Source: a virus. Taken from it: a stretch of 64,000 nucleotides of DNA. The notes below the pieces were generated by a model. It made no database searches and was not told where the DNA came from. It saw nothing but the letters and a program-made list of their open reading frames with translations. Below, in pieces: positions 8,011-50,257 of the stretch. The translations under genes were made by a program, and so were the position numbers. Each line of letters starts with the position of its first letter. Within the stretch, counting starts at the first letter, position 1. The stretch lies in UHGV virus genome UHGV-0076293; one strand, given 5' to 3'.

Positions 8011-8065
8011 TATTTTCAGATATATATTACTTAGGTGAGAGAATTACGTAATACTCATTTATCGA
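8011..8065 (+). promoter_or_regulatory. phage promoter-like element with downstream 5'-UTR hairpin (copy 1)
   Basis: TTTTCAGATATATATTACTTAGGTGAGAG followed by an imperfect palindrome; about 25 nt upstream of an AGGAG RBS; one of five near-identical copies. Confidence 0.6.
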
Positions 8066-12165: not shown

Positions 12166-14451
12166 ATGAAAGATACCCGAATCTCTAATTTAGAGAAACT
12201 CGTAGAAGCCGGTACTAGTCTGGCCCAAAACGTCATCGGCAACAACACCGCCAGCGAAATGTGGAAGACGATTGTTGCAGGCGAGTCCGTACGTAGCAAC
12301 GCAAAAGTATTTGGCGCTCTGCGTGACGAAGCATCACAGCACTATGCCAACGCTTTTGGCGGCAAGAAAATGTCTCATGCTGCGACCGTCGCTTCCGCAA
12401 TGATTCTGGGCGTAGCTAACCACGGTAAAGACCTGCAAGAACGTGTTGCCCAGGAATACGCTAAGCCGGAATTCCACACCAAGTATAACCTGGATATTGG
12501 TATCCCTGGTGCGCAAGGTGGTGATTGGGGTCGTGAGCGTATGGTTGTTGCTCAGGAATACTACAGCAACAAAGACTACGACAAAAACCTGGGCCTGACC
12601 TGGACCCTGAACGTACGTGCTCTGGAAACTCAGTCCAAGTTTGCTGAAACACTGTTCCCGACCATTACCGTTGACACCAACGATGTTGGTATTACCGTAC
12701 GTACTAAAGTGACTACCGTTTCTCGCGGTATCATGAACGCGCTGCTGAGCAAAGACGTCGTTGAAGATCATCGTCGTCCGCTGCACAACGCTCTGACTGA
12801 CCACACCGTTCTCCAGGACGAAGCGATCAACATCGTTCCTTACGTAATGGAAACCGGTGAAAACCAGGAATACTTCGTAAGCGAAGATCTGGTTCCGAAC
12901 GAAACCGTTCGCCTGGGCCGTGTACCTCCGTATCCGACTAACTACCTGAGCTTTGCAAACGACACACTGAACCTGTTCCAGCTGTCTGCGCATCCGGGTA
13001 TTGTTCAGGAAGGTTACGATGAAACTGATGAAATCGCACCGGGTTGTGCTCTGGGCAGCCTGCTGATTTCTGTACGTAAACCGGCCGAAGAAGCGAAAGC
13101 GGGTAAATTCATCAAACTGCACGTTCGTGACATGCAGTTCGCAACCTTCCAGCGTCCTGCTGAAGGTGACGGCCGTGAACTGGTTCTGCAATTCCGTCGT
13201 ACCGCGTTCTCTCTGAATGCGAAAACCACTGACTGGAAAGGCGACGCTATTCCGGCACTGCAAGCACTGGGCCAGAACTCCTACACCCTGCGCTACGTTA
13301 TCACCATCACCATGTCCCTGTTCACCAGCGGCCAGTTCGGTGGTAAAGTAGACATTTCCGGCCACAAACTGGAAATCGAAGGTCTGTACGATGCAACTGG
13401 TAACAAAGTTGATACCAAGTCTGGTACCGGTAAAGTTATCCTGGACGGCCTGAAACTCGAGCTGATGGGCTGGCGCTTCGATGGTACTCGTACCAACGAA
13501 AACCGTCGTACCCAGGGTCTGCTGCTTGACCCAATTTGGGAACAGGAAAACTACAAACTGCAATACGGTTCTCCGATTCTGACCAAGTCTCCGGTTGGTG
13601 TTGAATACGACGACACTGAACGTCTGGATGACCTGATCTCTGCGGTGAACATCCGTAACGAACAGCTGGCTATTACTCAGACGCTGTCTTACACTGAAGC
13701 AGTACGTAACGCAGCCGCTGCGATGATCACTCCGTGGGACAAACCGGCTATCCGTGGTCTGGGCCGTCACTGGGTTGCTCCGTGGTTCAAAGAGTCTGAC
13801 TACAAAGTCGATGAAGTTGTTCAGTCTCTGGATACCAAAGAAGCGCTGATCAACGCTCGTCAGGGTCTGTTGCAGCGTATCGGTAGCCAGGTAACTCAGG
13901 CTATCCAGGATTCTCGTTTCATTCCTGCACTGCGCCTGCTGACTGCTGATCCGGACATTCTGCCGAAAGTTATCATCGCAACTGACGAACCGACTGCATC
14001 CATGCTGCTGCTGGTTCAGGGCGACCAACGTCTGCTGGGCGACCGTTATGAATACGAAGTCGTTACCACCAACGATGACCGCTGGCGTATCTACAACGCA
14101 GCTGACGATTCCTGGACTCGTCGTCTGCAATGGTTCCTGAAAGTTCCGACTGCGGACGATGGTTCCTACTGCGTACTGAACTGGGGTAACCACTTCTGGT
14201 CTCCGATCATGGTTACCAACATCAACATCCAGCGTAACGGTTCTACTTCTAAAGAACTGGCTGTACAGCCGCGTAACGCGCATATCTGCCACTGCCCGAT
14301 CACTGGTCTGATTTGGGTTAAAGGCATCACCAAACTGGTTGAAGAAAAACTGGCTTACAACGTTTCTGTAGAACAGAACGGCCAGAAACAAACCGAAGGT
14401 GGTGTAGCAGGTAATGTTGCTGGCGACGGTAAAGACAAAGCTGGTAAATAA
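12166..14451 (+). CDS. abundant virion protein, probable major capsid protein (761 aa)
   Basis: extreme bias to enterobacterial optimal codons (CTG, CGT, GGT, ACC, AAA, GAA); the bias leaves a 685-aa stop-free antisense frame; size fits the ~750-aa major capsid proteins of phiKZ-like phages; no motif-level confirmation possible here. Confidence 0.5.
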   Translation: MKDTRISNLEKLVEAGTSLAQNVIGNNTASEMWKTIVAGESVRSNAKVFGALRDEASQHYANAFGGKKMSHAATVASAMILGVANHGKDLQERVAQEYAKPEFHTKYNLDIGIPGAQGGDWGRERMVVAQEYYSNKDYDKNLGLTWTLNVRALETQSKFAETLFPTITVDTNDVGITVRTKVTTVSRGIMNALLSKDVVEDHRRPLHNALTDHTVLQDEAINIVPYVMETGENQEYFVSEDLVPNETVRLGRVPPYPTNYLSFANDTLNLFQLSAHPGIVQEGYDETDEIAPGCALGSLLISVRKPAEEAKAGKFIKLHVRDMQFATFQRPAEGDGRELVLQFRRTAFSLNAKTTDWKGDAIPALQALGQNSYTLRYVITITMSLFTSGQFGGKVDISGHKLEIEGLYDATGNKVDTKSGTGKVILDGLKLELMGWRFDGTRTNENRRTQGLLLDPIWEQENYKLQYGSPILTKSPVGVEYDDTERLDDLISAVNIRNEQLAITQTLSYTEAVRNAAAAMITPWDKPAIRGLGRHWVAPWFKESDYKVDEVVQSLDTKEALINARQGLLQRIGSQVTQAIQDSRFIPALRLLTADPDILPKVIIATDEPTASMLLLVQGDQRLLGDRYEYEVVTTNDDRWRIYNAADDSWTRRLQWFLKVPTADDGSYCVLNWGNHFWSPIMVTNINIQRNGSTSKELAVQPRNAHICHCPITGLIWVKGITKLVEEKLAYNVSVEQNGQKQTEGGVAGNVAGDGKDKAGK

Positions 14452-19378: not shown

Positions 19379-19412
19379 CAAGGAGAGCTTCGGCTCTCCT
19401 CCTTTATTTTTA
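19379..19412 (+). terminator. intrinsic terminator
   Basis: AGGAGAGC-TTCG-GCTCTCCT followed by a T-rich stretch. Confidence 0.75.
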
Positions 19413-27383: not shown

Positions 27384-27420
27384 AACCTCTACCTTCGGGT
27401 AGAGGTTTTCTTCTTTTTAT
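27384..27420 (+). terminator. intrinsic terminator
   Basis: ACCTCTACC-TTCG-GGTAGAGGT followed by a T-rich stretch. Confidence 0.75.
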
Positions 27421-27467: not shown

Positions 27468-28154
27468 ATGAAGGAATTGCAATTAAGAAAGCGTACTACT
27501 CTTATCCCCCTTAAGGAACTAAAACAGTGTCCCGTTTTCTACTCACCGAAAGATCACCTAGATTTATCTAAAGAGAAAAAGATTATTATTTCTGCCTTCC
27601 GAGAAGTAATCAATCTTCGTTATTTCGCGGCACCAATGGATTGTGCTATCGAACATGCTATGTTGGATGGAAGAACGTCGCTTACAGTTTACGATTTGTT
27701 AGAAGAAAAGAATATCGGTATTGAAACTGGTATACTGAGAGTAAACAAAAATGAGTTATTAGAAAGTCAAAAACAACTAATGACAGGTGTTCAATTACTC
27801 TTAGAGCAATATGGCTTCTATTCGGAAAAACCAACTTCTGCGGTATCTACGCAACCCATCATCTGTGACCATGGGTTTGAGGTAGAATGGAAAACAATTC
27901 GAGGGCAAGATTTTATTTTAATACATTGGTTCGTTCCCTATCTTTGGAAAGAGCGTACCACAGTTTATGCTTTACTTGAATTCGCTGTCTACTGGAGCAT
28001 TTATAAAAAAGAACGTGCTACTGCAATGAAAACGGTAATGACCACGCCGTTAAATCAACTTTTTACCTCTGGGTTAGAAACAGATTTTAACGAACTATGT
28101 ACAACTATTTTCAAGATGGAGTATGGCTATGCACCAGTTGGATATAACCGCTGA
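27468..28154 (+). CDS. hypothetical protein (228 aa)
   Basis: GAGGAG RBS. Confidence 0.7.
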   Translation: MKELQLRKRTTLIPLKELKQCPVFYSPKDHLDLSKEKKIIISAFREVINLRYFAAPMDCAIEHAMLDGRTSLTVYDLLEEKNIGIETGILRVNKNELLESQKQLMTGVQLLLEQYGFYSEKPTSAVSTQPIICDHGFEVEWKTIRGQDFILIHWFVPYLWKERTTVYALLEFAVYWSIYKKERATAMKTVMTTPLNQLFTSGLETDFNELCTTIFKMEYGYAPVGYNR

Positions 28155-30788: not shown

Positions 30789-30911
30789 ACTTGACTTTAA
30801 CCGCGTAGTTGAGTTCAGCGATTCACCGTGTGATGGGAACAGAAGTTACTGCGTATCCGTTAGCAGGGTGAACTGGGTAAAAGTAAGATCAAAGCAAACG
30901 AGTAAATTATC

Positions 30912-32045
30912 ATGTCAACGTTAGATAGCGACTTAGAAGTGCTTTGTGACGATTACGACCGACTCGTAGCGTTAGAATCCATTGGAGTAAAAGACAATTA
31001 TCCGGCTATCGTTGCTATCCGTAAACGTTGGCTTTTGGATGATGTGGTTGTTGCGTCAGAGTCTGCGGCCATGATGCATCGTGCGCAGTTTTTGTCAGAC
31101 ACGGAACCTGATAAAGGGATTGGCAAAGCGGCGGCGCGACTCACCGGTCGTGCGGTTCGTGGCGTAAGTCGGGTAGCAGGACGTGCTGCCAGTGCAGGTG
31201 CAAAAGCATCAGCGAACTTTGCAGGTAAACATTCCAAACAACTTGCTTTACGTTTTGTGGATTTTGCTGAGGCTGCCGGTAAAGAAGTCATTAAGGAATT
31301 AAAAGAAGCGACGTCTAAAACGACGACCTTAGAACGCAAACTGCAAAAGTTAACCGCACGTCTAAGTTTAATCGGTGACAAAGACACTTTAAAACCGGTT
31401 GACTGCGACACGGGAAGTTGGACGACCAAAGTCTGTTTAGAAGACAAACCTAACGTAAAAGCATGTATTGAGTTCAGTAAGAACCTGAACGCAATGGATG
31501 CGATGGTCAACGAGTATACCGTTAAAACACGCACCATTATCGGTAAGAGCAAGAAAGTTACCGAGAGTGGTTTGGAGAAAGTAGGCCGGTCAACGAACTG
31601 GGCGATTAAACGTAGCGCAGGATTGTTCGGTATTATTGATCCGTTTAAAACGGTGAAAGCATATCCGTGGCCAGGTAACGTGGTGGTCGTTGAACACGAC
31701 AGCGGTAAGATTGAGTGGGCGATTGCCCGTGATGGTGATTTTGGCCACACAATCAAATCGCTGAACTTACACGAAATCGGTTCAGCACTCGATGCCGTTA
31801 GAAACATTATCCGTGCTTTACGTCAGCGTGGTACGAAACGACGTAGCGTTGGTTATACCGGTATTTACGATGAAATTCAGCGAATGAAAAAAGAACTGAA
31901 ATCGTTAGACGGTCGTGAGTTACGTGACGCTACCGTTCGGTATAAGAACGCACTGCGTTTAGAAGATGCGTTTACTACCTCGTTAGTGCGTGTTGCGGAA
32001 GGCTTACTGGAATGGTGCAGGTTGTCGCTGATTGAGGTTAAATAA
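30912..32045 (+). CDS. hypothetical protein (377 aa)
   Basis: long ORF with Ala/Arg-rich N-terminal region; the antisense 269-aa ORF inside it is rejected. Confidence 0.7.
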   Translation: MSTLDSDLEVLCDDYDRLVALESIGVKDNYPAIVAIRKRWLLDDVVVASESAAMMHRAQFLSDTEPDKGIGKAAARLTGRAVRGVSRVAGRAASAGAKASANFAGKHSKQLALRFVDFAEAAGKEVIKELKEATSKTTTLERKLQKLTARLSLIGDKDTLKPVDCDTGSWTTKVCLEDKPNVKACIEFSKNLNAMDAMVNEYTVKTRTIIGKSKKVTESGLEKVGRSTNWAIKRSAGLFGIIDPFKTVKAYPWPGNVVVVEHDSGKIEWAIARDGDFGHTIKSLNLHEIGSALDAVRNIIRALRQRGTKRRSVGYTGIYDEIQRMKKELKSLDGRELRDATVRYKNALRLEDAFTTSLVRVAEGLLEWCRLSLIEVK

Positions 32046-33434: not shown

Positions 33435-34043
33435 GTGATGTCAGAGATGATTCTCGACTCATTACTGCTGATTACGGTGGCGTATATCAACAAAACCGGT
33501 AAGCTACCAAAGCGTGGGGTGACGATTGAACGGGAGGGGTTTAAGCACCGCTACCCGTTAACGAAAGTTCTCGATTTGGCAGCGCGGTTAGCGAAGATGC
33601 GTAGACCGACGTCAGACGCAGCACCGAAGTACGTATTAGTGGTACTTCAACGTGCGATTTCTGAAGTTCGTCGTGCGCGTCGTCGTGCCTCGTTTCGCTT
33701 TTATCCAAACTCTACGCAACAGGTTGTGGGGGTCTATAACGAAATGGTTGTTGATTTACGTACCGAACACTGTAACGTTACGGGACTTGCGTATAACCGC
33801 CTCAAACGCATTCTGGACAACTCAGACGCGTTTACCACACCGCAAGAAGGCCAAGCGGCTTTAGCGCTTCTACGTGGCGCTGAGCTCGTTATTGTGGACA
33901 CCGCAGTACAGGCCGCAAGAATGCAGCACTATCTTGCTAAGCAAGGGTTAGTTATACTGTGTGTACCGTCTGCACAGGCTGCTAATCTTACCGCACCGGA
34001 AACGTCAGAAGTGTGGAGTGGTCCGATTGTTGACCATCAATAA
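33435..34043 (+). CDS. hypothetical protein (202 aa)
   Basis: ORF followed by a terminator. Confidence 0.65.
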   Translation: MMSEMILDSLLLITVAYINKTGKLPKRGVTIEREGFKHRYPLTKVLDLAARLAKMRRPTSDAAPKYVLVVLQRAISEVRRARRRASFRFYPNSTQQVVGVYNEMVVDLRTEHCNVTGLAYNRLKRILDNSDAFTTPQEGQAALALLRGAELVIVDTAVQAARMQHYLAKQGLVILCVPSAQAANLTAPETSEVWSGPIVDHQ

Positions 34044-34050
34044 AACCTTA

Positions 34051-34088
34051 CCCCTACCGTTAGGTAGGGGCGGGTTTCTTTTTTATCC
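34051..34088 (+). terminator. intrinsic terminator (repeat-family hairpin)
   Basis: CCTTACCCCTACC-GTTA-GGTAGGGG followed by a T-rich stretch; near-identical hairpin recurs at 34813. Confidence 0.75.
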
Positions 34089-34181
34089 TAAAATTTATTA
34101 CAACCAATAGCTATTATGTGAACGCCGGTATGGAATAAAGAAGTATCGGTTTAAATTTTTGTGCGTAAAGGTAAAACAATA

Positions 34182-34805
34182 ATGCTTAAGACAGTGTCTA
34201 TTGATGGCCCTGACTTTTCTGGGAAATCGACGTTGTGCAAAATAGTAAAAGGTATGCTGGAATCTGCGGGGTTAAAGGTCTGCATCCGTAATCACCCTAC
34301 GACGGAGACCGAAGCGGGTATCCGCGCACGCAGTTTAGTCGTTCAGTCCGCAGCAAAAGCAAAAATTGCTGAAGCGATGTGCGACGATTTCCTCCACACG
34401 CTAGACCATGTTGTTGACGATTACGATGTTGTTATTTTCGACAGGTTCTGTCCCTCTACAATCGTTTACCAGGGCGTCGACGGTAAAGACGAAGTTTTCC
34501 GACGCAAGCTAACGCGTCATTTCCACGCGCCAGATTTATACGTTTGGACAGATGTGGATTACGACGGCGCAGTAGCACGCTTTAAGAAACGAGTAGAAGA
34601 ACAAGGTAAGAATTGGGACGATGAAGTTCTTACCGTTAAGTATTTAAAAGACAACCAAAGCTGGGAAGCGTTACGTGACCACTACCGTTTCGCCCACCAC
34701 ATTCTCACTGAAGGCGGTTGTCTACATCGTTTATTGCCTGTGAAACAAGACGACGACTACCGTTTAAAAGCGGCGGAAATCGTTGCTTGTATTTTAGAGA
34801 ATTAA
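34182..34805 (+). CDS. tmk: thymidylate kinase-like nucleoside monophosphate kinase
   Basis: P-loop IDGPDFSGKST and DRF...STIVYQG align with the E. coli Tmk motifs (IEGLEGAGKTT, DRH...STQAYQG); ATG at 34182 with AAAGG RBS (track starts at a GTG at 34161). Confidence 0.65.
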   Translation: MLKTVSIDGPDFSGKSTLCKIVKGMLESAGLKVCIRNHPTTETEAGIRARSLVVQSAAKAKIAEAMCDDFLHTLDHVVDDYDVVIFDRFCPSTIVYQGVDGKDEVFRRKLTRHFHAPDLYVWTDVDYDGAVARFKKRVEEQGKNWDDEVLTVKYLKDNQSWEALRDHYRFAHHILTEGGCLHRLLPVKQDDDYRLKAAEIVACILEN

Positions 34806-34812
34806 TCCCTTA

Positions 34813-34848
34813 CCCCCTACCTTCGGGTAGGGGTTATTTAATTTTTTC
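34813..34848 (+). terminator. intrinsic terminator (repeat-family hairpin)
   Basis: CCCTTACCCCCTACC-TTCG-GGTAGGGG followed by a T-rich stretch. Confidence 0.75.
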
Positions 34849-34890
34849 TCAGATATATATTACCTTAGTGAGATTACACAGTAATCACTT
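34843..34890 (+). promoter_or_regulatory. phage promoter-like element with downstream 5'-UTR hairpin (copy 2)
   Basis: TTTTTTCTCAGATATATATTACCTTAGTGAGA followed by an inverted repeat (TTAC...GTAATCAC). Confidence 0.6.
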
Positions 34891-39428: not shown

Positions 39429-39466
39429 GCCCCCTCTCTCCAGACGGAGAGAGGGTGTATTTTTTA
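39429..39466 (+). terminator. intrinsic terminator (repeat-family hairpin)
   Basis: CCCCCTCTCTCC-AGAC-GGAGAGAGGG followed by a T-rich stretch; near-identical hairpin at 40214. Confidence 0.8.
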
Positions 39467-39520: not shown

Positions 39521-39838
39521 ATGTGGTTAAGTGCTATTCATCGCGATTTACCGAAAACGGCAGTGAGTTTTGCTAAGAAAACTCCTGTTCCTAACGTTGG
39601 TGTTGCTAAATTTGAACGAGTGGAAGAGGGGCAATTCGTTGTAACGGATCATAAAGAAAACGAATTTATGTTGTATCATCCAGAAGTGGATACCTCTGAA
39701 ATTTGTGAGGGTGTTTTTTTATTGTCCTGGCAAGACCCTGAAACTAAAGAGTGGAAGTGGTGCACCGCTAAACCATTAAAAGAAATCGAAAACGGTTATG
39801 GGATTGGAGAGATTTATGTCGAACCAGAACCACACTAA
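39521..39838 (+). CDS. hypothetical protein (105 aa)
   Basis: first ATG with GAGGA RBS (track starts at a TTG at 39506). Confidence 0.6.
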   Translation: MWLSAIHRDLPKTAVSFAKKTPVPNVGVAKFERVEEGQFVVTDHKENEFMLYHPEVDTSEICEGVFLLSWQDPETKEWKWCTAKPLKEIENGYGIGEIYVEPEPH

Positions 39839-39879
39839 TTTCGATATAACTTCAGCATTGTGTTGTTAACGGTCTAAAA

Positions 39880-39920
39880 AATTTAAGATATATTTCATCT
39901 ATGTGAGAATTCTCACTTAA
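39880..39920 (+). promoter_or_regulatory. phage promoter-like element with downstream 5'-UTR hairpin (copy 3, variant)
   Basis: AAGATATATTTCATCTATGTGAGAATTCTCAC; perfect GTGAGAA/TTCTCAC palindrome. Confidence 0.5.
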
Positions 39921-39939
39921 CTAAATGGAGTAATCTAAA

Positions 39940-40209
39940 ATGGCTAAGATTTACATTGTTGAAAAACGTTCAGGTAATGTTCTTTCTTATCACGAAGAAG
40001 GCAAACCCGAAAGAGTTAAAACGCTCAAGCTTGAAGGTTTTGATGTGAAAAGCCTGCGTAAAGGCGTGAAGATTACTTTCAAAGGTTTGATTCGTGCAAG
40101 TAACTTACACATCATTAAAACGGACGGAACGATGGTTGCATTAGCACCGGCTACCGCTGCGAAAACGACAGCCGGTCGGGGTTGCTACGGCAGCAGTCGT
40201 AAGATTTAA
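39940..40209 (+). CDS. hypothetical small protein (89 aa)
   Basis: GGAG RBS, downstream of promoter motif copy 3. Confidence 0.6.
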   Translation: MAKIYIVEKRSGNVLSYHEEGKPERVKTLKLEGFDVKSLRKGVKITFKGLIRASNLHIIKTDGTMVALAPATAAKTTAGRGCYGSSRKI

Positions 40210-40213
40210 GCAG

Positions 40214-40254
40214 TGCCCCTCTCTCCTAGCGGAGAGAGGGTACTTTTATTTTTC
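40214..40254 (+). terminator. intrinsic terminator (repeat-family hairpin)
   Basis: CCCCTCTCTCC-TAGC-GGAGAGAGGG followed by a T-rich stretch. Confidence 0.8.
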
Positions 40255-40264
40255 TTCGAGGTGT

Positions 40265-40756
40265 GTGATGACAACGGTATTAGTAACAAAGGATTACATT
40301 TTAGCTGATCGTTTAGTGGAATATAGTGGAACAGTTAAAGAATTGCCCAAACTACACAAACACAAAAACAAGTTTGTTTTCTACACGGGGGAACGTGTAC
40401 TGGACACCGAGTTTTGGAAAATGTCGATGACCGTTACTATAGAAAAATATTTAGACGAGGATAAACGCAAGAAAGTTGAGCCGTTGCTTGTGGAACTTTT
40501 CGAAAAAGAGCAATTGTTTGATCAAATCGTCATTTTTACGGTCAGAGAAACCTATTGGCTAGGATTAGTATCAGATAAGTTTAAAACGTTTGTAATAAAT
40601 AAAAATGCGGTCTGGACGACGGGATCTGGTGGCGGCTTTGCGCGGGCAGCTTGGGCAACAGGAATATCAGAAAAGAAAATTATGCCATTGGTAGGATCAA
40701 TTGATACAGCATCATCACAAACGTACGACTTGTTTTACAGGAAGCATTTACGATGA
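40265..40756 (+). CDS. hypothetical protein (163 aa)
   Basis: GAGGTG RBS. Confidence 0.65.
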   Translation: MMTTVLVTKDYILADRLVEYSGTVKELPKLHKHKNKFVFYTGERVLDTEFWKMSMTVTIEKYLDEDKRKKVEPLLVELFEKEQLFDQIVIFTVRETYWLGLVSDKFKTFVINKNAVWTTGSGGGFARAAWATGISEKKIMPLVGSIDTASSQTYDLFYRKHLR

Positions 40757-41318: not shown

Positions 41319-41714
41319 ATGACAGCAATACTAGGTGTAATGACAAGAAAAGCCGATGCCATTGAAACGTTTATTGAACAATACAACAACTCACCGTATA
41401 CGCGTTTTAGATTGCATAAACCGAAGAATAGTACAGAATGGGTTCGTTGGTTTAGGATTTGGGATAAAACAATAAGTAAAATTGATCCGTTATTTAGAAT
41501 AACGGTTGAACCTGCTTATTGGATAGTAATGGAAATTTCGCTATTGCGTATTATCGAAAAACGTCCTATTGACACAAAGACGATGTTTGGGAATGATACG
41601 TATAAAATGTTGACTAACGGTTTTGTAGGTAATGGAGAACACACTTTGTATCAGGCGATGCTGGAAATGTGTTTGTTCGATTTAGTTACATACGAATTGG
41701 AGATTTCAAAATGA
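41319..41714 (+). CDS. hypothetical protein (131 aa)
   Basis: AGGAGA RBS. Confidence 0.65.
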   Translation: MTAILGVMTRKADAIETFIEQYNNSPYTRFRLHKPKNSTEWVRWFRIWDKTISKIDPLFRITVEPAYWIVMEISLLRIIEKRPIDTKTMFGNDTYKMLTNGFVGNGEHTLYQAMLEMCLFDLVTYELEISK

Positions 41715-44646: not shown

Positions 44647-45080
44647 AAGTAAAAGCAGCAGTAGAAGTTATTCCCAAAAAAGAAATCGTAGTGTGTTCCG
44701 GTTTAGTATTCGAGCTGCCGCGCACTGAATGTTATAATAGCACCAATCCTGAAACGATAATTAGACGCCTTTCAAGACATTGCCTAAACTACTGTCAAGT
44801 TGTTACACCGACAAAGGATGGCGATATAGTCCAAGAACATTTGATTATTAATGAACTCGTGGGCGGTGTCCTTAACGGAATGGAGCTTGAAGAAGTGAAT
44901 GGTTCGTTAAAGCTTTATGCCAACTTTCGTCCATGTGGACCACTGGGCAATAAAGTAAATGAATTTATTCAGTCACACGGGTATGTAAAGCTTAAACCAC
45001 GTTTACACTATATCGATTCTAAAGTAGCTATGATTTCAGCTATCGATATTGACCTATCAAAACCTTCTGAAAATCACTAA
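44643..45080 (+). CDS. hypothetical protein (145 aa)
   Basis: ATGA overlap with upstream stop. Confidence 0.6.
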   Translation: MKVKAAVEVIPKKEIVVCSGLVFELPRTECYNSTNPETIIRRLSRHCLNYCQVVTPTKDGDIVQEHLIINELVGGVLNGMELEEVNGSLKLYANFRPCGPLGNKVNEFIQSHGYVKLKPRLHYIDSKVAMISAIDIDLSKPSENH

Positions 45081-45940: not shown

Positions 45941-48900
45941 ATGGCTAAAGCGGTAAAGAAAATTCGTTTACACGATTTACGTCCATACACCGGTGATATC
46001 GGTGAAGGCGTTTTACTTTTCTCCAAGGATGAGAAAGATTATAAGTTACCAGTCCGTGAGGTTATTGCAGATATTGACACCGTACGTAATGCGGTGGCTG
46101 ATGCACAAACAGCAGCAGCACAATCACAAGAAGCTGCAACTCAGGCTACGCAAGCAAAAGTTTTAGCAGAAGCAGCAAAACAACAAACTGACACAGTTGC
46201 GGCAACGGTTGCACAACAAGCGCAAACCGTAACCGAAAAAGCAACAGAAGTCAGTACAAAACACACCGAAGTGTTAGCCGCGAAAACGGCGGTAGACGCT
46301 CAGGCTGTGTCCATTAATGAGAAAGCACAAGCGGTAGCGACAAGTGAGGCAAACGTCACACAAGCAGAAACTACCGTTACGAAGAAAGCAGAAACTGTTG
46401 CCACACAAGCCGGGCGGGTCGAACAGTCACTTACGGCAGTTAACGAAGCTGTTGCGTCGGTAGAGTCGTCGAAAGCTGCCGTAGAAGCTAAAGCAACACA
46501 AGTTACTTCAGACAAAGAAACCGCAGAGAATGCGGCAACTCGTTCTGAGGCAGCCGCTAAGCGTGCGGAAGAAATCGTTGCTCAAGGTACTGTTGATGCA
46601 ACAACGACCAGTAAAGGTGTCGTTAAACTTAATAATACCTTAACCAGTGACTCTGTTACTGAAGCGGCTACACCGTCAACGGTTAAGCAGTTAAATGATG
46701 AATTGCAGTTAAAAGCAAACCGTCACAACCCAACTTTTACCGGTGTGGTAAAAGCACCGACTCCTGCTTCGGATTCTAACGACACGAGCGTCTCAACGAC
46801 TGCATGGGTACGGCAAGCGATTGCTGAATTAGTGGACTCTTCACCCGAGACGTTAGATACGTTATCAGAAATTGCAGCCGCGTTAGGAAACGATCCTAAC
46901 TTTGCGACAACGATAACGAACCAACTAGCGGGTAAACAGCCGTTAAGTCCGTTACTGACAGCGATTGCCGCAGTCACCACCGCTGCAAACAAACTCCCTT
47001 ACTTTACCGGTAGTAATCAGGTAGGGTTAGCGGATTTCACCTCGACTGCTCGCGAATTATTAGCGAAAGGGTCGACGGCCGATATCATCAGCTTCCTGGG
47101 GTTGAAAACCACCGTTGATAAAGCTGCGGGCGCTATGCAACGTAGTTCTAACGGTGCCGATATTCCCGATAAAGCCACCTTCGCGAAGAACATCGGGTTG
47201 TCAGCAGAGACGTACCTGAAGTTTAATGGGGAGATGCCAGTAGATGCAGACATCAACACCTTCGGCCCGGTTGAAGCGTTTATGGGCGTTTGGTCTAAAG
47301 CCACGTCTACGAACGCAACAGTTGCAAAGAATTTTCCAGAAGAAAACGCAGTTGGTTGTTTAGAAGTTTTCAAAGCGGGTAACTACAGCGGAAGTCAACG
47401 TTTTACTGTACGTAACGGTAACATCTATACACGTCATCTTACTGCTGCATGGAATGGGACAAACGGTCCTTGGTCAGAATGGCGTAATGTTGCTGGTTCC
47501 GCCAGAACGTTGAACGAACAAAATAATCTGAATGACTTGGGTGGTGAGGCCGCACTAGGTGTTTGGAGAAACAGTTCGAGTACATTAGCAACAACCGCGC
47601 TGAATTATCCTGAAGAAGGCTCTTTTGCCCAGGGCGTATTAGAAGTTCTCAAAGGTGGCAACTATAGTTACACACAACGCTACACTACCCGCAGAGGCAA
47701 TGTATACGTTCGTTGTCTACAAGCCACGTGGGACGCTTCAAACCCGCAATGGGAAGAATGGCGCTGTGTTGGTCATCAATCTGTCAGCACATATTTCGAA
47801 GGCGATCTCGACACGTTAACTTCGCCTAACCGTTATAGCATTACTGATAAAGCGACAAACGTTCCTTTAATCGACGGTACTAAAATTATCGGTATCTTGG
47901 ACGTCAGTCGTCGTTTTGATAACATTAGTGTCGAACAAAAATTCACCTCGTTTGGTTCTGGGAGCAAAACTACAGGGCGTATTTTCACACGTGTATTCTC
48001 CGGTCAATCAAACGGTAAATGGAGTGAGTGGCGAGAGGTTTTCACCTCGTATTCACTTCCGTTAGTTTTAGGTATCGGTGGGGTTGCAGCTAAGGTTGAC
48101 CCGTTAGACTGGCAAACCTACGACTTCGTTCCTGGACAGATGTTAACGACGCCGTTGAACACCATGAAAAACATTCCTGCAGGAATGGATTGGGGTACTA
48201 TTGACGGTAACTTAGTTAACATCCTTGTAGGGCCGTCTGACGACACCGGTACTGGTCGGAGTATGCTGGTTTGGCGTAGCACAGTGTCTGTTGCTAACTA
48301 TCGCTTCTTTGCGGTACGTATCGCTGGTGAGAAGGGTAGTCGTACGATTACGCCGCGTCAGATGCCTGTGTTGAACGCAGCGCACACCTGGGCAGAGAAA
48401 CAAACGTTCTCTAAAGGTTTAGCGGGTGAATTAACCGGTAATGCTTCTTCAGCAACGAAACTTCAAACAGCCCGTTTAATCGGCGGCGTAAGTTTCGACG
48501 GCACCAAGGACATTGCACTCCCTGGCGTTAACGCACAAGGTACGCAGAACACCACTGGGAATGCGGCTACCGCAACCAAATTACAAACGGCTAGAAATAT
48601 CAACGGTGTGAAATTCGATGGCTCTGGAGACATCAATATCAACACCTTAGTAGGTCGTGGACGTGTCACTGCTCTGGCTGGATCAAACAAAGGTACACCT
48701 GGTATCCAGATGTACGAGGTTTACAATAACGGTTATCCGACCGCGTATGGTAATTTACTGCATTTAGGTGGTGCTACTGCCGTAGGTGAAGGTGAACTAC
48801 TGATCGGTTGGTCTGGTACCAGTGGCGCACACGCACCTGTTTATATCCGTAGTCGTCGAGACACTACAGATGCGCCGTGGTCAGAATGGGCGCAAGTTTA

Positions 48901-50257
48901 TACTGCACGAGACAGCATTCCGGGTGTCAACACCACAGGTAATCAGGATACGACCGGAAACGCAGCTACCGCTACAAAACTTAAAACCACACGTAAAATA
49001 GGCGGGGTTAATTTTGACGGAACGGGTGATATTAACCTACCAGGTGTAAACCAGCAGGGCAACCAGAACACAACAGGTAACGCTGCGACAGCGACTAAAC
49101 TCCAGACTGCCCGAAATATTGGTGGTGTGGCTTTCGATGGTACTAAAGACATCAGTTTACCTGGGGTAAACCAAACAGGGAATCAGTCAACTACGGGGAA
49201 CGCTGCTACTGCAACGAAGTTGCAGACAGCAAGAAGTATCAACAACGTACCATTCGATGGTTCGAAAGATATTACTCTAACGCCAAGTAATATCGGTGCG
49301 GCTGCCTCCTCAATGACTTGGTTAAATACCGGGGATAATGGTGCAGCGCTTAGTACAGATTCTTTTATTACTTTGTTGCAAAATAACGGGGCTTTTAATT
49401 CCAGAACTTGGATAGCCCGATGCTCTTGGGCGTATGCTCAAAATGGCGTGATTCCAGATAGTGAAACAAAGTGCGGTACTATTCCACTTGCAGGCTCAGT
49501 TATTGAAGTTGTAAGTTTTGGGATGACCAACTACACCATTCGTATCACAACCCCTACGACGACATCGGTTAGCGGAGCAAAAACCAACTCTGAGTTTATT
49601 TATTGCTATAATGGTAAAGATTATTCTCCAGGTTGGCGACGGCAGTATAACACTGTTAATAAACCGTCTGCTAGTGACGTTGGCGCTCTACCAACTGGTG
49701 GCGGTACTGTCAGTGGCGATTTGACGGTTAATGGTAAACTGGTTACGAAAAATGCCGATTTTCGAATTGCTTACGGTAGTTACGGTTTCATTTTACGTAA
49801 CGATGGCAATAGCACCTATTTCTTAGTAACAGCATCTGGTCAAGCTGCAACGGGTTCCTGGAACAACTTACGACCGATGTACTTTAGCAATTCTACCGGT
49901 CAAGTAACCTTCGGACACAACATTACCGGTAACGGCAACGGTTCGTTTAACGACGTACAGATTCGTTCTGACCGTCGTAACAAACGTAATCTGGTGAAAC
50001 TGGATAATGCATTAGACCGTTTAGAACTCCTTACCGGGTATCTGTACGAAGTTCAACATCCTGACGATGGATGGAATACTTCGGTAGGCTTAATTGCCCA
50101 GGATGCATTAGTTGCGTTACCTGAATTGGTTACTGAAGACGATGACGCTATTTCTGGTGAAAAACGTTTACGTTTGAACTATAATGGTGTTATTGCGTTG
50201 TTGGTAGAGGGTATTAAAGACCTTCGTCGTGAGCTTAAGGAACTCAAGGGGAAATAA
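45941..50257 (+). CDS. long tail fibre, T5 pb1-like (1438 aa)
   Basis: Ala/Gln/Thr-rich coiled-coil N-terminal region; five tandem GNAATATKLQTARNIGGVxFDGTKDI repeats (phage tail-fibre repeat class); C-terminal peptidase S74-type intramolecular chaperone with SDRRNK Ser-Lys motif. Confidence 0.85.
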   Translation: MAKAVKKIRLHDLRPYTGDIGEGVLLFSKDEKDYKLPVREVIADIDTVRNAVADAQTAAAQSQEAATQATQAKVLAEAAKQQTDTVAATVAQQAQTVTEKATEVSTKHTEVLAAKTAVDAQAVSINEKAQAVATSEANVTQAETTVTKKAETVATQAGRVEQSLTAVNEAVASVESSKAAVEAKATQVTSDKETAENAATRSEAAAKRAEEIVAQGTVDATTTSKGVVKLNNTLTSDSVTEAATPSTVKQLNDELQLKANRHNPTFTGVVKAPTPASDSNDTSVSTTAWVRQAIAELVDSSPETLDTLSEIAAALGNDPNFATTITNQLAGKQPLSPLLTAIAAVTTAANKLPYFTGSNQVGLADFTSTARELLAKGSTADIISFLGLKTTVDKAAGAMQRSSNGADIPDKATFAKNIGLSAETYLKFNGEMPVDADINTFGPVEAFMGVWSKATSTNATVAKNFPEENAVGCLEVFKAGNYSGSQRFTVRNGNIYTRHLTAAWNGTNGPWSEWRNVAGSARTLNEQNNLNDLGGEAALGVWRNSSSTLATTALNYPEEGSFAQGVLEVLKGGNYSYTQRYTTRRGNVYVRCLQATWDASNPQWEEWRCVGHQSVSTYFEGDLDTLTSPNRYSITDKATNVPLIDGTKIIGILDVSRRFDNISVEQKFTSFGSGSKTTGRIFTRVFSGQSNGKWSEWREVFTSYSLPLVLGIGGVAAKVDPLDWQTYDFVPGQMLTTPLNTMKNIPAGMDWGTIDGNLVNILVGPSDDTGTGRSMLVWRSTVSVANYRFFAVRIAGEKGSRTITPRQMPVLNAAHTWAEKQTFSKGLAGELTGNASSATKLQTARLIGGVSFDGTKDIALPGVNAQGTQNTTGNAATATKLQTARNINGVKFDGSGDININTLVGRGRVTALAGSNKGTPGIQMYEVYNNGYPTAYGNLLHLGGATAVGEGELLIGWSGTSGAHAPVYIRSRRDTTDAPWSEWAQVYTARDSIPGVNTTGNQDTTGNAATATKLKTTRKIGGVNFDGTGDINLPGVNQQGNQNTTGNAATATKLQTARNIGGVAFDGTKDISLPGVNQTGNQSTTGNAATATKLQTARSINNVPFDGSKDITLTPSNIGAAASSMTWLNTGDNGAALSTDSFITLLQNNGAFNSRTWIARCSWAYAQNGVIPDSETKCGTIPLAGSVIEVVSFGMTNYTIRITTPTTTSVSGAKTNSEFIYCYNGKDYSPGWRRQYNTVNKPSASDVGALPTGGGTVSGDLTVNGKLVTKNADFRIAYGSYGFILRNDGNSTYFLVTASGQAATGSWNNLRPMYFSNSTGQVTFGHNITGNGNGSFNDVQIRSDRRNKRNLVKLDNALDRLELLTGYLYEVQHPDDGWNTSVGLIAQDALVALPELVTEDDDAISGEKRLRLNYNGVIALLVEGIKDLRRELKELKGK
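48425..49295 (+). repeat. five tandem ~37-aa tail-fibre repeats inside the fibre gene
   Basis: repeated TGNAATATKLQTAR-x-IGGV-x-FDG-x-DI-x-LPGVNQ-x-GNQ units, recoded with synonymous codons between copies. Confidence 0.8.

Follow-up and report, generated by a model that had tools for sequence, protein, structure and literature searches.

The window, by which we mean the whole stretch of 64,000 nucleotides analysed from the virus genome UHGV-0076293, is, judged by its gene content, part of an SPN3US-like (phiKZ-related) jumbo phage. Its proteins match those of SPN3US, Asesino, phiEaH2 and their relatives at 57-67% with full synteny, and a phiKZ internal-head-protein domain is encoded within it. 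Because GenBank phages gave only a 66-nt match at the DNA level, we used protein-level searches together with IMG/VR contigs. A thymidylate kinase gene (tmk) is bracketed by two hairpins, T_up and T_down (pair 1), and two small genes are bracketed by another two (pair 2). Of the close relatives, four IMG/VR contigs span the pair 1 site and eight relatives in all span the pair 2 site. Members of the clade are IMG/VR contigs 3300045988_078609, 3300045988_095954, 3300045988_113438 and 3300029126_000001, together with OBXH01000029.1, SKEP01000003.1, JACXXQ010000002.1 and QZLY01000003.1. The outgroups compared at the hairpin sites are SPN3US, pEa_SNUABM_29, STsAS and Asesino. The features are as follows.

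27384..27418, + strand: third hairpin akin to those of pair 1, from local alignment and stem stability
34043..34085, + strand: T_up, terminator-type hairpin 3' of a gp168-like gene, from its stem, T-tract and stability
34051-34058/34063-34070, + strand: inner stem of T_up (CCCCTACC/GGTAGGGG), with loop GTTA and outer stem AAACCT/GGGTTT
34086..34181, + strand: T_up/tmk junction, a variable (hyperplastic) spot whose gene content differs among relatives
within 34086..34181, + strand: weak promoter-like AT-rich motif AAAATTTATTAC
about 34103-34160, + strand: 59-nt spacer, the slot for the extra gene of relatives, from comparison with them
34182..34805, + strand: tmk, thymidylate kinase gene (Pfam PF02223, 1.6e-17)
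34814..34847, + strand: T_down, terminator-type hairpin 3' of tmk, with tail TTATTTAATTTTTT
34850..34875, + strand: promoter-like motif CAGATATATATTAC..GTGAGA, which would serve an HTH-regulator gene; member of a repeat family
39432..39466, + strand: 5' terminator-type hairpin of pair 2, with T-tail
39521..39838, + strand: small conserved gene 1 (phrog_9789; SPN3US gp156 homologue)
39839..39939, + strand: intergenic stretch, apparent relic of a lost small ORF, from comparison with relatives
about 39867-39909, + strand: degenerate copy of the promoter-like motif, of the same repeat family as that at 34850
39940..40209, + strand: small conserved gene 2 (phrog_12339; SPN3US gp154 homologue)
40217..40252, + strand: 3' terminator-type hairpin of pair 2, with T-tail

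The near-identical hairpins that had been proposed to flank the thymidylate kinase gene are real, with stems at 34051 and 34814, and so is the second pair, at 39432 and 40217, around the two small genes. The members of pair 1 read CCCCTACC GTTA GGTAGGGG (T_up, 34051-34070) and CCCCTACC TTCG GGTAGGGG (T_down, 34814-34833); those of pair 2 read CCCTCTCTCC AGAC GGAGAGAGGG (5' copy, 39432-39455) and CCCTCTCTCC TAGC GGAGAGAGGG (3' copy, 40217-40240). Their spacing, 763 bp in pair 1 and 785 bp in pair 2, agrees with the direct repeats about 0.8 kb apart of the original prediction. The patterns CCCCTACC-N4-GGTAGGGG and CCCTCTCTCC-N4-GGAGAGAGGG each have exactly two matches in the 64-kb window, and neither was matched in 100 dinucleotide-preserving shuffles of it. 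Extension of the repeat around the hairpins halts at 33-35 nt, with 70-82% identity.

All four hairpins lie between genes and share their strand, the stems beginning 7-9 nt past the stop codons of plus-strand ORFs (34043, 34805, 39425 and 40209). The stems are 8-10 bp long, that of T_up reaching 14 bp in two tiers, and the predicted RNA stabilities are -22.1 (T_up), -16.1 (T_down), -25.1 (39432) and -23.8 (40217) kcal/mol, with z-scores of -2.3 to -4.9 relative to shuffles (-4.1 for T_up). T-rich tails follow 3' of the four stems (TTTCTTTTTT, TTATTTAATTTTTT, TGTATTTTTT and TACTTTTATTTTT), the T-tracts of T_down and of the 40217 hairpin being interrupted. A hairpin with a T-tract right behind a stop codon is the canonical layout of an intrinsic terminator, and we read all four as intrinsic terminators predicted to close short transcription units, which upholds the earlier assignment of the hairpins as terminators. 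In AR9, a related jumbo phage, transcription ends at predicted intrinsic terminators (PMC5312081). No Rfam family was matched across 26-46 kb.

The window has about 19 terminator sites, with diverse and mostly unique stems. Most strong terminators, in the window as in SPN3US, have a C/T-rich 5' arm with hardly any G. Among the 171 terminator pairs of the window, pair 2 is the sole clear top-scoring one (score 24 vs a median of 8). A third hairpin, AACCTCTACC TTCG GGTAGAGGTT at 27384-27407, resembles both members of pair 1 (local alignment scores of 20 and 19) as closely as these resemble each other (18), so pair 1 is a family of three with one member 6.7 kb off; another look-alike terminator family lies at 19381, 30162 and 36001. 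Close relatives, on contigs of 220-225 kb, have each exact stem only as its pair, and the hairpins are therefore not simply the commonest terminator genome-wide. Searching for further copies recovered the exact stems as their pairs only, plus the similar hairpin at 27384.

Most hairpins run directly into the next promoter-like motif, forming terminator-promoter junctions. The motif CAGATATATATTAC..GTGAGA has exact copies at 8017, 34850, 54738 and 59125, and SPN3US has 16 copies on the plus strand and none on the minus strand; we regard this strand-specific, promoter-like motif as a putative phage promoter. A scan for sigma-70 promoters gave no excess over shuffles and none at the hairpin junctions. 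A second promoter-like motif after terminators, TTTTAC-N-TGTGA, was dropped as not significant (2 matches vs 0.9 expected in the window).

The bracketed genes had been taken for independently inserted modules, a view that did not survive comparison with related phages. By tblastn, 63 phage records have tmk in syntenic position, always adjoining the gp168 homologue region, and 62 have its upstream neighbour; small gene 1 (the gp156 homologue) was found in 53 records and small gene 2 (the gp154 homologue) in 31. Presence-absence comparison places the bracketed genes in every close relative that covers them, tmk in four of four and both small genes in eight of eight. Neither tmk nor the two small genes show a compositional oddity (GC 0.425 vs 0.43-0.47 nearby). 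We rejected a horizontal swap of tmk, since its identity to clade A is flat across the gene with no mosaic signal, and an integron, site-specific or homing origin, since the neighbouring ORFs scanned have no recombinase or endonuclease domain; the ORFs scanned at 27-45 kb have neither an integrase nor a recombinase domain, and no transposase-like gene lies nearby. The repeats had also been suggested as recombination substrates, and the product of a hairpin-to-hairpin deletion, with a single hairpin left, was seen in no relative, neither in IMG/VR nor among the metagenome matches listed. We conclude from these comparisons that tmk and both small genes are long-established and conserved rather than recently inserted.

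It is the hairpins that changed instead. At all four orthologous sites, the four outgroups have hairpins unlike those of the window, each type being consistent or closely related among them. Unlike hairpins accompany these genes in the outgroups, so the repeats arose once the genes were already in place. At the T_up site the outgroups have CCCACTCC TTCG GGAGTGGG, with CCCCCTCAC TTCG GTGAGGGG in Asesino, and T_up is kept in the four IMG/VR relatives that span the site (an exact 25-nt T_up query gave no IMG/VR match, the loops differing, and a pattern with a free loop succeeded). T_down has as its outgroup orthologue the hairpin CCCC(C/T)(C)TTACC TTCG GGTAAG(A/G)GGG(G), which is about one base pair longer than that of the window; in clade B (contigs L005, L006 and L116) T_down is swapped for GGTACCACC CAAC GGTGGTACC. 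By this comparison we judge T_down to be ancestral and T_up to be lineage-specific.

The 39432 hairpin was found in all eight relatives, and at its site the outgroups have CCTCCTTGCC yrC GGGTGAGGAGG, which may be orthologous to it. At the 40217 site three outgroups have CCCTACCTAAC TYCG GTTAGGTAGGG, and Asesino has the related CCCCTACCC CTGTCC GGGTAGGGG. We read the 40217 hairpin as a copy of the 39432 stem-loop that overwrote an ancestral hairpin. The likeness of the 5' flanks of pair 2 (TAAGC...) was considered as a longer duplicated tract and rejected: in the outgroups the same position has TAAG(T/C)AGT next to an unlike hairpin, which makes the flank orthologous. The stems of pair 2 are unchanged across 18 of 18 copies from nine genomes, with varying loops and flanks, and in L004, L005 and L006 both copies have a GTTT loop and are identical 24-25-mers. 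Between two sub-clades of close relatives, three of seven terminators were changed or replaced and four were conserved. Among relatives the same hairpin loops also turn up in reverse-complement form (GTTT/AAAC and TAAC/GTTA), which indicates that the palindromes are recombinationally active.

Gene content varies beside the hairpins. The slot between T_up and tmk has zero, one or two genes in related phages, from at least four unrelated families, and most of these genes bring their own promoter-like motif, terminator or both. It is empty in the window, L003, L006, SPFM16 and pEa_SNUABM_29, and occupied by gp167 in SPN3US, an unrelated ORF in STsAS, gp115 and gp116 in Asesino, and a 204-aa gene with its own terminator in L004 and L005; gp167 and Asesino gp116 are the only related pair. 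Likewise, four of four relatives have an unrelated gene in place of the one that follows the 27384 hairpin in the window (27468-28154), the swap beginning just past the junction. The link to variable gene content that had been proposed thus holds beside T_up, in the T_up/tmk slot, and fails for the genes within either pair. The ends of an SPFM16/SPN3US indel fall in the T-tracts behind two terminators; most other indel endpoints within the 20 kb compared are inside ORFs or ribosome-binding sites, not at hairpins.

Between 39.5 and 40.8 kb, alleles are reshuffled gene by gene and the intergenic islands are conserved. The core of small gene 1 is 62-90% identical to clade A and 58-88% to clade B, with flanks 93-100% identical to clade A, which marks the allele of the window as divergent; the allele of small gene 2 is common to the window and L003 and differs in L004 and L134. 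Four contigs (L005, L006, L116 and L186) have an extra ORF of ~260 bp between the two small genes, of which only fragments are present in the window, L003 and L004. SPN3US gp155 occupies the equivalent position, a likeness of position only.

In the complete SPN3US genome, where the terminator set numbers 46, five terminator pairs have a common 5' arm word of at least 10 nt vs 0.05 expected from composition-preserving shuffles. Three identical 24-nt hairpins lie at 67.3, 94.2 and 181.0 kb with unrelated flanks, and identical terminators are up to 114 kb apart, their identity stopping at the stem foot. Adjacency as a general rule was rejected: similar-stem pairs are 10-220 kb apart with only one of 17 adjacent, and identical terminators were not enriched among neighbours (P = 0.85). 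Because SPN3US shows no neighbour preference, the adjacency of both window pairs could be partly luck (by a rough estimate, P about 0.01-0.05).

We think it probable that the likeness of neighbouring hairpins arose because terminator stem-loops were replaced or copied between sites while the flanking genes stayed put. The mechanism would be ectopic conversion over short tracts, or template switching, with the palindrome at its centre. For pair 2, a copy of the hairpin lying 0.8 kb upstream would have overwritten an ancestral CCCTACCTAAC-type hairpin after the gp154 homologue, at a time before the split of the sampled relatives. For pair 1, an ancestral T_down would have been slightly shortened and the hairpin at the T_up site would have given way, in this lineage, to a stem from the T_down family, the donor being ambiguous between T_down and the hairpin type found 3' of the gp154 homologue in outgroups. 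The hairpin likeness would then stem from copying between sites and not from insertion of the enclosed genes, and the junctions would act as conserved linkers, beside which accessory genes come and go and between which alleles are exchanged among related phages. As no conversion tract can be traced past the stem, strong sequence-specific selection on stems may also act. A broader version, which we hold only tentatively and rather doubt, makes terminator stem-loops tiny convertible modules, with palindrome-limited copying near and far, loop flipping, and gene gain, loss and allele swap centred on the junctions; breaks or replication stalls at the hairpin could drive the copying, and an SbcD-like palindrome nuclease is encoded in this phage family.

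Could the likeness instead reflect convergence? If a polymerase or phage factor preferred G-free, C/T-rich 5' arms, stems would drift alike and their adjacency would be coincidental. The arm composition of most strong terminators in the window and SPN3US would fit, as would the identity that ends at the stem foot, the lack of adjacency enrichment in SPN3US, and the one stem motif with TTAT common to 61 phiKZ terminators (PMC10914365). However, the excess of SPN3US pairs sharing at least 10 nt was measured against shuffles that preserve composition, and the loops are identical too, in the three SPN3US hairpins and in pair 2 of L004-L006, which selection on stem composition does not explain. The stems of the window are otherwise diverse, and each exact stem occurs just twice per ~220 kb genome in its clade. 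Convergence therefore seems unlikely to us. Insertion and excision of the bracketed units through the direct hairpin repeats, in the manner of the PeSLs of T4-type phages and with one hairpin arriving with the cassette, we consider quite improbable. Such mobility would suit direct repeats of 20-25 nt only 0.76-0.79 kb apart, a neighbouring junction that gains and loses promoter-gene-terminator units, and the T-tract ends of the SPFM16/SPN3US indel, and PeSL-flanked ORFs of T4-type phages are excised as mini-circles (PMC2839356). Yet the bracketed genes are syntenic in 30-60 family members and every close relative that covers them, outgroups have these genes with unlike hairpins, no single-hairpin deletion product appeared in IMG/VR or the metagenome matches listed, and the identity of about 20-25 nt is far below the ~100 bp of PeSLs. 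The truly variable cassettes (gp167 and the L004 slot gene, L004_X) are flanked by unlike terminators.

A role of the hairpins in RNA processing or stability, or in protein binding (nuclease sites or 3' protective stem-loops), with each pair marking transcripts co-regulated by one hairpin-specific factor, is in our view very improbable. The invariance of pair 2 stems amid varying loops and flanks and the two interrupted T-runs would be consistent with such a role, but the hairpins have the layout of intrinsic terminators, stem and T-tract after a stop codon, and they brought up neither an Rfam match (26-46 kb) nor a candidate binding protein. Moreover, the 27384 hairpin and T_up are as conserved as pair 2, which therefore does not stand out by its invariance; four of seven sites are conserved overall.

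Taking copying and replacement of stem-loops as the preferred reading, repeated look-alike terminators are nothing out of the ordinary in phages that copy and replace their terminators in this way. Directly repeated terminators around a jumbo-phage gene do not mark a mobile cassette, which guards annotation against over-interpretation. The comparison yields a usable map of the accessory region, in which foreign genes collect at a hot spot flanked by the 34051 hairpin and tmk and alleles are exchanged at 39.5-40.8 kb, and a strand-specific promoter-like motif for the phage group. If hairpin-limited copying is true, it adds a small mechanistic piece on how giant phages remodel regulatory punctuation and shuffle genes; if the convertible modules are also real, they would be the jumbo-phage counterpart of PeSL shuffling with far shorter homology.

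Bacterial REPs reach copy numbers of tens to hundreds and are associated with RAYT transposases. REP/BIME elements are similarly short intergenic palindromes that often lie 3' of genes and are identical only within the palindrome; in contrast, the window families have two or three copies, each a terminator-type hairpin with a T-tract. Unlike integron attC sites, the window hairpins are perfect short palindromes with T-tracts. By the definition of Juhala et al. (2000) as cited in PMC10914365, a moron is a single gene with its own promoter and terminator between genes that are adjacent in related phages. On that wording, SPN3US gp167 and the STsAS insert (ins1) fit fully, and the slot genes of L004 and L005 (L004_X and L005_X, own terminator) and Asesino gp115 (own promoter-like motif) fit in part, whereas tmk and the two small genes, present in all relatives and of no odd composition, do not resemble morons so defined.

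phiKZ has 61 intrinsic terminators with one shared C-rich/G-rich stem motif (Putzeys et al. 2024, PMC10914365). Many of the window terminators, from the same wider phage group, likewise have C-rich 5' and G-rich 3' arms, and they fall into sequence families, and in T_down GGGG is followed by TTAT. The phiKZ motif (BCCYCCCC-loop-GGGRRGG-TTAT) has the same arm polarity on other stems; it dominates 61 sites, whereas the ~19 window and 46 SPN3US terminators have no dominant motif and a different consensus, most stems being unique apart from several small families of two or three copies.

PeSLs are the promoter-early stem-loops of T4-type phages (Arbiol et al. 2010, PMC2839356; Comeau et al. 2014, PMC4122927). 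They differ from the window junctions in having sigma-70-type promoters, where the window has the phage-specific CAGATATATATTAC...GTGAGAG, and in similarity over ~100 bp, where identity in the window is confined to the 20-25 nt hairpin. The bracketed genes are conserved and no ORFans, and the window, from an unrelated jumbo phage with its own RNA polymerases, has relatives in which neither a circle nor a hairpin-to-hairpin deletion was seen. The two systems are alike in joining a terminator stem-loop to an early promoter, putative in the window, at junctions between small accessory genes, and in the gene insertion, deletion and replacement beside these junctions, for which they have been proposed as linkers in modular shuffling. 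The PeSL trait of flanking differing genes, untrue inside either hairpin pair, is true of the T_up/tmk and 27384 junctions.

We confirmed by pattern scans and shuffled controls that the thymidylate-kinase gene (tmk) is flanked by hairpins of nearly the same stem (pair 1) and that a second look-alike pair surrounds two small genes (39521-39838 and 39940-40209):

34051-34070, + strand: upstream hairpin of pair 1 (T_up), CCCCTACC-GTTA-GGTAGGGG
34814-34833, + strand: downstream hairpin of pair 1 (T_down), CCCCTACC-TTCG-GGTAGGGG
39432-39455, + strand: upstream hairpin of pair 2, CCCTCTCTCC-AGAC-GGAGAGAGGG
40217-40240, + strand: downstream hairpin of pair 2, CCCTCTCTCC-TAGC-GGAGAGAGGG

Each pattern had exactly two matches in 64 kb, whereas 100 dinucleotide-preserving shuffles gave none. 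A + strand ORF ends 7-9 nt before each of the four hairpins, and a T-rich tail comes after each; their RNA folding energies range from -16 to -25 kcal/mol, with z-scores of -2.3 to -4.9. T_up has an extra outer stem, AAACCT/GGGTTT. In anatomy they are complete intrinsic terminators, and they are among ~19 strong terminator-like sites that pattern scans gave on the + strand of the window. An Rfam search of 26-46 kb returned no matches.

No near-identical phage was found in GenBank. The encoded proteins match those of SPN3US-like jumbo phages (Seoulvirus, Erskinevirus and related Erwinia phages) at ~57-67% identity with gene order kept, and a phiKZ internal-head-protein domain is present at 30912-32045. 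A 1438-aa tail-fibre gene at 45941-50257 combines a T4 gp34-type trimerisation domain with a C-terminal S74 intramolecular chaperone domain. The ORF within pair 1 is tmk (PF02223, 1.6e-17), and the ORFs within pair 2 (phrog_9789 and phrog_12339) are the counterparts of SPN3US gp156 and gp154. The original prediction, that the bracketed genes were inserted as independent modules, was not borne out by presence and absence in related genomes, where these genes are conserved and syntenic. Phage records with tmk number 63, with its upstream neighbor in 62, and the gp156 and gp154 homologues occur at the same positions in 53 and 31 records. We compared eight close relatives, four from IMG/VR (L003-L006) and four metagenome assemblies among the matches listed (L116, L134, L179, and L186, with L179 99.7% identical to the window). 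All four IMG/VR loci, which span tmk, retain it (protein identity 90-98%), both small genes are kept in 8/8 relatives, and along tmk the identity with the nearest relatives stays level. A single recombined hairpin was found in none of the eight, the metagenome ones being among the matches listed.

We also compared the orthologous hairpin sites in four outgroups, SPN3US, pEa_SNUABM_29, STsAS, and Asesino:

Hairpins at the orthologous sites of the outgroups
Before tmk: CCCACTCC TTCG GGAGTGGG; in Asesino, CCCCCTCAC TTCG GTGAGGGG
After tmk: CCCC(C/T)(C)TTACC TTCG GGTAAG(A/G)GGG(G)
Before the gp156 homologue: CCTCCTTGCC yrC GGGTGAGGAGG
After the gp154 homologue: CCCTACCTAAC TYCG GTTAGGTAGGG; in Asesino, CCCCTACCC CTGTCC GGGTAGGGG

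Within any outgroup the hairpins of the four sites are all unlike one another, whereas at any one site the four outgroups have a common type or closely related ones, indicating that the hairpins, not the genes, have changed. By this comparison T_down descends from the ancestral hairpin, shortened by about one base pair. T_up is a replacement specific to the lineage, and the four IMG/VR relatives that span the site have all kept it. The 40217 hairpin looks to be a copy of the 39432 stem-loop in place of a CCCTACCTAAC-type hairpin. In L004, L005, and L006 both copies of pair 2 are identical, GTTT loop included, as expected if one was copied from the other. Because the outgroups have the same sequence immediately 5' of the hairpin at 40217 (TAAG-YAGT), the palindrome alone would have been exchanged. 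As a separate observation, the T_up type of L004, CCCCTACC TAAC GGTAGGGG, is what remains when the inner 8 nt are taken out of the hairpin that outgroups have after the gp154 homologue, CCCCTACCTAAC TTCG GTTAGGTAGGG; in the outgroups that hairpin type (101176 in SPN3US; 12176-12201 in its locus, L001) lies 5.5 kb away.

Terminator turnover is still under way among close relatives. Over 20 kb compared, 3/7 terminators were changed or replaced between two sub-clades, including the after-tmk hairpin, which is GGTACCACC CAAC GGTGGTACC in L005, L006, and L116 (clade B). Comparing the window with L003-L006, L116, L134, and L186, loops also occur as reverse complements: GTTT versus AAAC, plus one-step derivatives, at 39442-39445, and TAAC versus GTTA at 34059-34062 in T_up, which suggests that perfectly palindromic terminators have been repeatedly inverted.

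Allele comparison of 39521-40756 in all eight relatives revealed that three genes at 39.5-40.8 kb are shuffled singly, gene after gene. In the core of 39521-39838, identity is only 62-90% with clade A relatives and 58-88% with clade B; 39940-40209 has the allele of L003, unlike L004 or L134; and 40268-40756 is 83-97% identical to clade B L006 and L116 versus 62-75% to the otherwise nearest genomes. In the intergenic junctions, hairpins included, identity with clade A remains at 93-100% while alleles are exchanged. The junctions are therefore likely to be conserved linkers for exchange at homologous positions between different phages, and not substrates on which the two repeats of one genome recombine.

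Across IMG/VR, the exact pair 2 stem was present only in four relatives, with two copies apiece that make up the pair, and in one unrelated contig. The exact pair 1 stem has no copies outside the pair in the 152-225 kb contigs of the relatives. Neither stem is simply the commonest terminator genome-wide. Look-alikes are nevertheless not restricted to neighbors. The 27384 hairpin, CCTCTACC TTCG GGTAGAGG, is as similar to either member of pair 1 as these are to each other, and another family occupies 19381, 30162, and 36001. Among 46 terminator-like hairpins catalogued on the + strand of the complete SPN3US genome (NC_027402.1), five pairs have a common 5' arm word of at least 10 nt, where composition-preserving shuffles predict 0.05. 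Among these are three 24-nt terminators of identical sequence, CCCTCTTACC TTCG GGTAAGAGGG, in unrelated flanks at 67345, 94154, and 180981. Further look-alike sets are at 137590/186744 and 113924/160009/177902; similar SPN3US pairs were not enriched between neighbors (P = 0.85). As a rule the 5' arm is rich in C/T with almost no G, recalling phiKZ, in which one conserved motif covers 61 terminators (PMC10914365). Given these families and the phiKZ motif, near-identical terminators are a general property of this phage group, and to find both pairs of the window adjacent is no more than mildly unusual (P roughly 0.01-0.05). Separately, CCCCTACC-N4-GGTAGGGG hairpins were seen in 6-8 separate stretches each of other jumbo-sized, apparently unrelated IMG/VR contigs: 2974795378_000001 (309 kb), 3300041411_000080 (321 kb), and 3300034358_000008 (325 kb).

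We think it probable that these are intrinsic terminators whose stem-loops have been overwritten by copies of other terminators. Another terminator's stem-loop would be copied over the resident one in a short tract centered on the palindrome, by conversion or template switching. Hairpin-directed breakage might drive this because SPN3US is annotated with an SbcD-like palindrome nuclease subunit, a link that we infer. That copy-and-paste limited to the hairpin is a distinct process is a tentative idea, and a somewhat doubtful one. Convergent selection toward particular stems would accord with the composition bias of the arms and the phiKZ precedent, but identical loops and a 100-fold excess above the composition null make it unlikely. 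Excision or insertion of cassettes, as originally predicted from the paired hairpins, is less likely again, given that the enclosed genes are conserved and the outgroup hairpins are unlike one another. That hairpins with terminator anatomy serve processing or binding in place of termination is the least probable reading.

Gene content does vary elsewhere, with eight indels or replacements between the window and L003-L006 over ~20 kb. The most striking variable site is the slot between T_up and tmk, just after the 34051 hairpin and a promoter-like motif:

Genes in the T_up/tmk slot
No gene: window, L003, L006, SPFM16, pEa_SNUABM_29
One gene: L004 and L005 (204-aa gene with its own terminator), SPN3US (gp167), STsAS (unrelated ORF)
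Two genes: Asesino (gp115 and gp116)

Here the window has a short non-coding stretch (34103-34160) where close relatives carry the 204-aa gene. Relatedness among slot genes was detectable for gp167/gp116 only, and SPFM16 and SPN3US differ with both endpoints in T-tracts 3' of two unlike terminators. A leader hairpin, GTGAGTCGG...ACTCAC, is conserved 5' of the slot gene (L004 9290-9345; SPN3US locus L001 3600-3650; Asesino locus L109 7090-7140), although BLASTP gave no similarity between the L004 gene and SPN3US gp167 or Asesino gp116. A second event beside a terminator concerns 27468-28154, a 228-aa ORF with no Pfam match. All four IMG/VR relatives have an unrelated gene of about the same size in its place, the swap running from just after the 27384 terminator and leader to the start of the next gene. 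The remaining events had no hairpins at their positions. They are either ORF-internal deletions with relics, at 44648-45054, 30789-30911, and 39839-39866, or, at 41319-41714, a deletion running cleanly between successive ribosome-binding sites. The stretches at 30789-30911 and 39839-39866 are short and non-coding, with recognizable fragments of the ORFs of ~270 and ~85 aa, respectively, that close relatives carry.

A motif of 25-40 nt, CAGATATATATTAC(Y)TAGGTGAGAG, is conserved 3' of several terminators. Its core is exact at 8017, 34850, 54738, and 59125, and near 39885 there is a degenerate copy. It is always upstream of genes and on one strand (4 + and 0 - in the window; 16 + and 0 - in complete SPN3US). 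It agrees with how AT-rich early-promoter motifs, found bioinformatically in jumbo phages encoding their own polymerases, have been described (PMC7598289), and is a candidate phage-polymerase promoter, putatively of that class.

Within the literature searched, such terminators and junctions have apparently not been described before for this phage group. They are nonetheless of a known kind: terminators in sequence families, and terminator-promoter junctions as points of plasticity. The window junctions are functionally similar to the PeSLs of T4-type phages (PMC2839356, PMC4122927), although they lack the sigma-70 promoter and the ~100 bp of common sequence of those elements. While tmk and the two small genes do not qualify as morons, the variable neighbor genes of the junctions resemble them, and those of the T_up/tmk slot behave like morons or PeSL cassettes.
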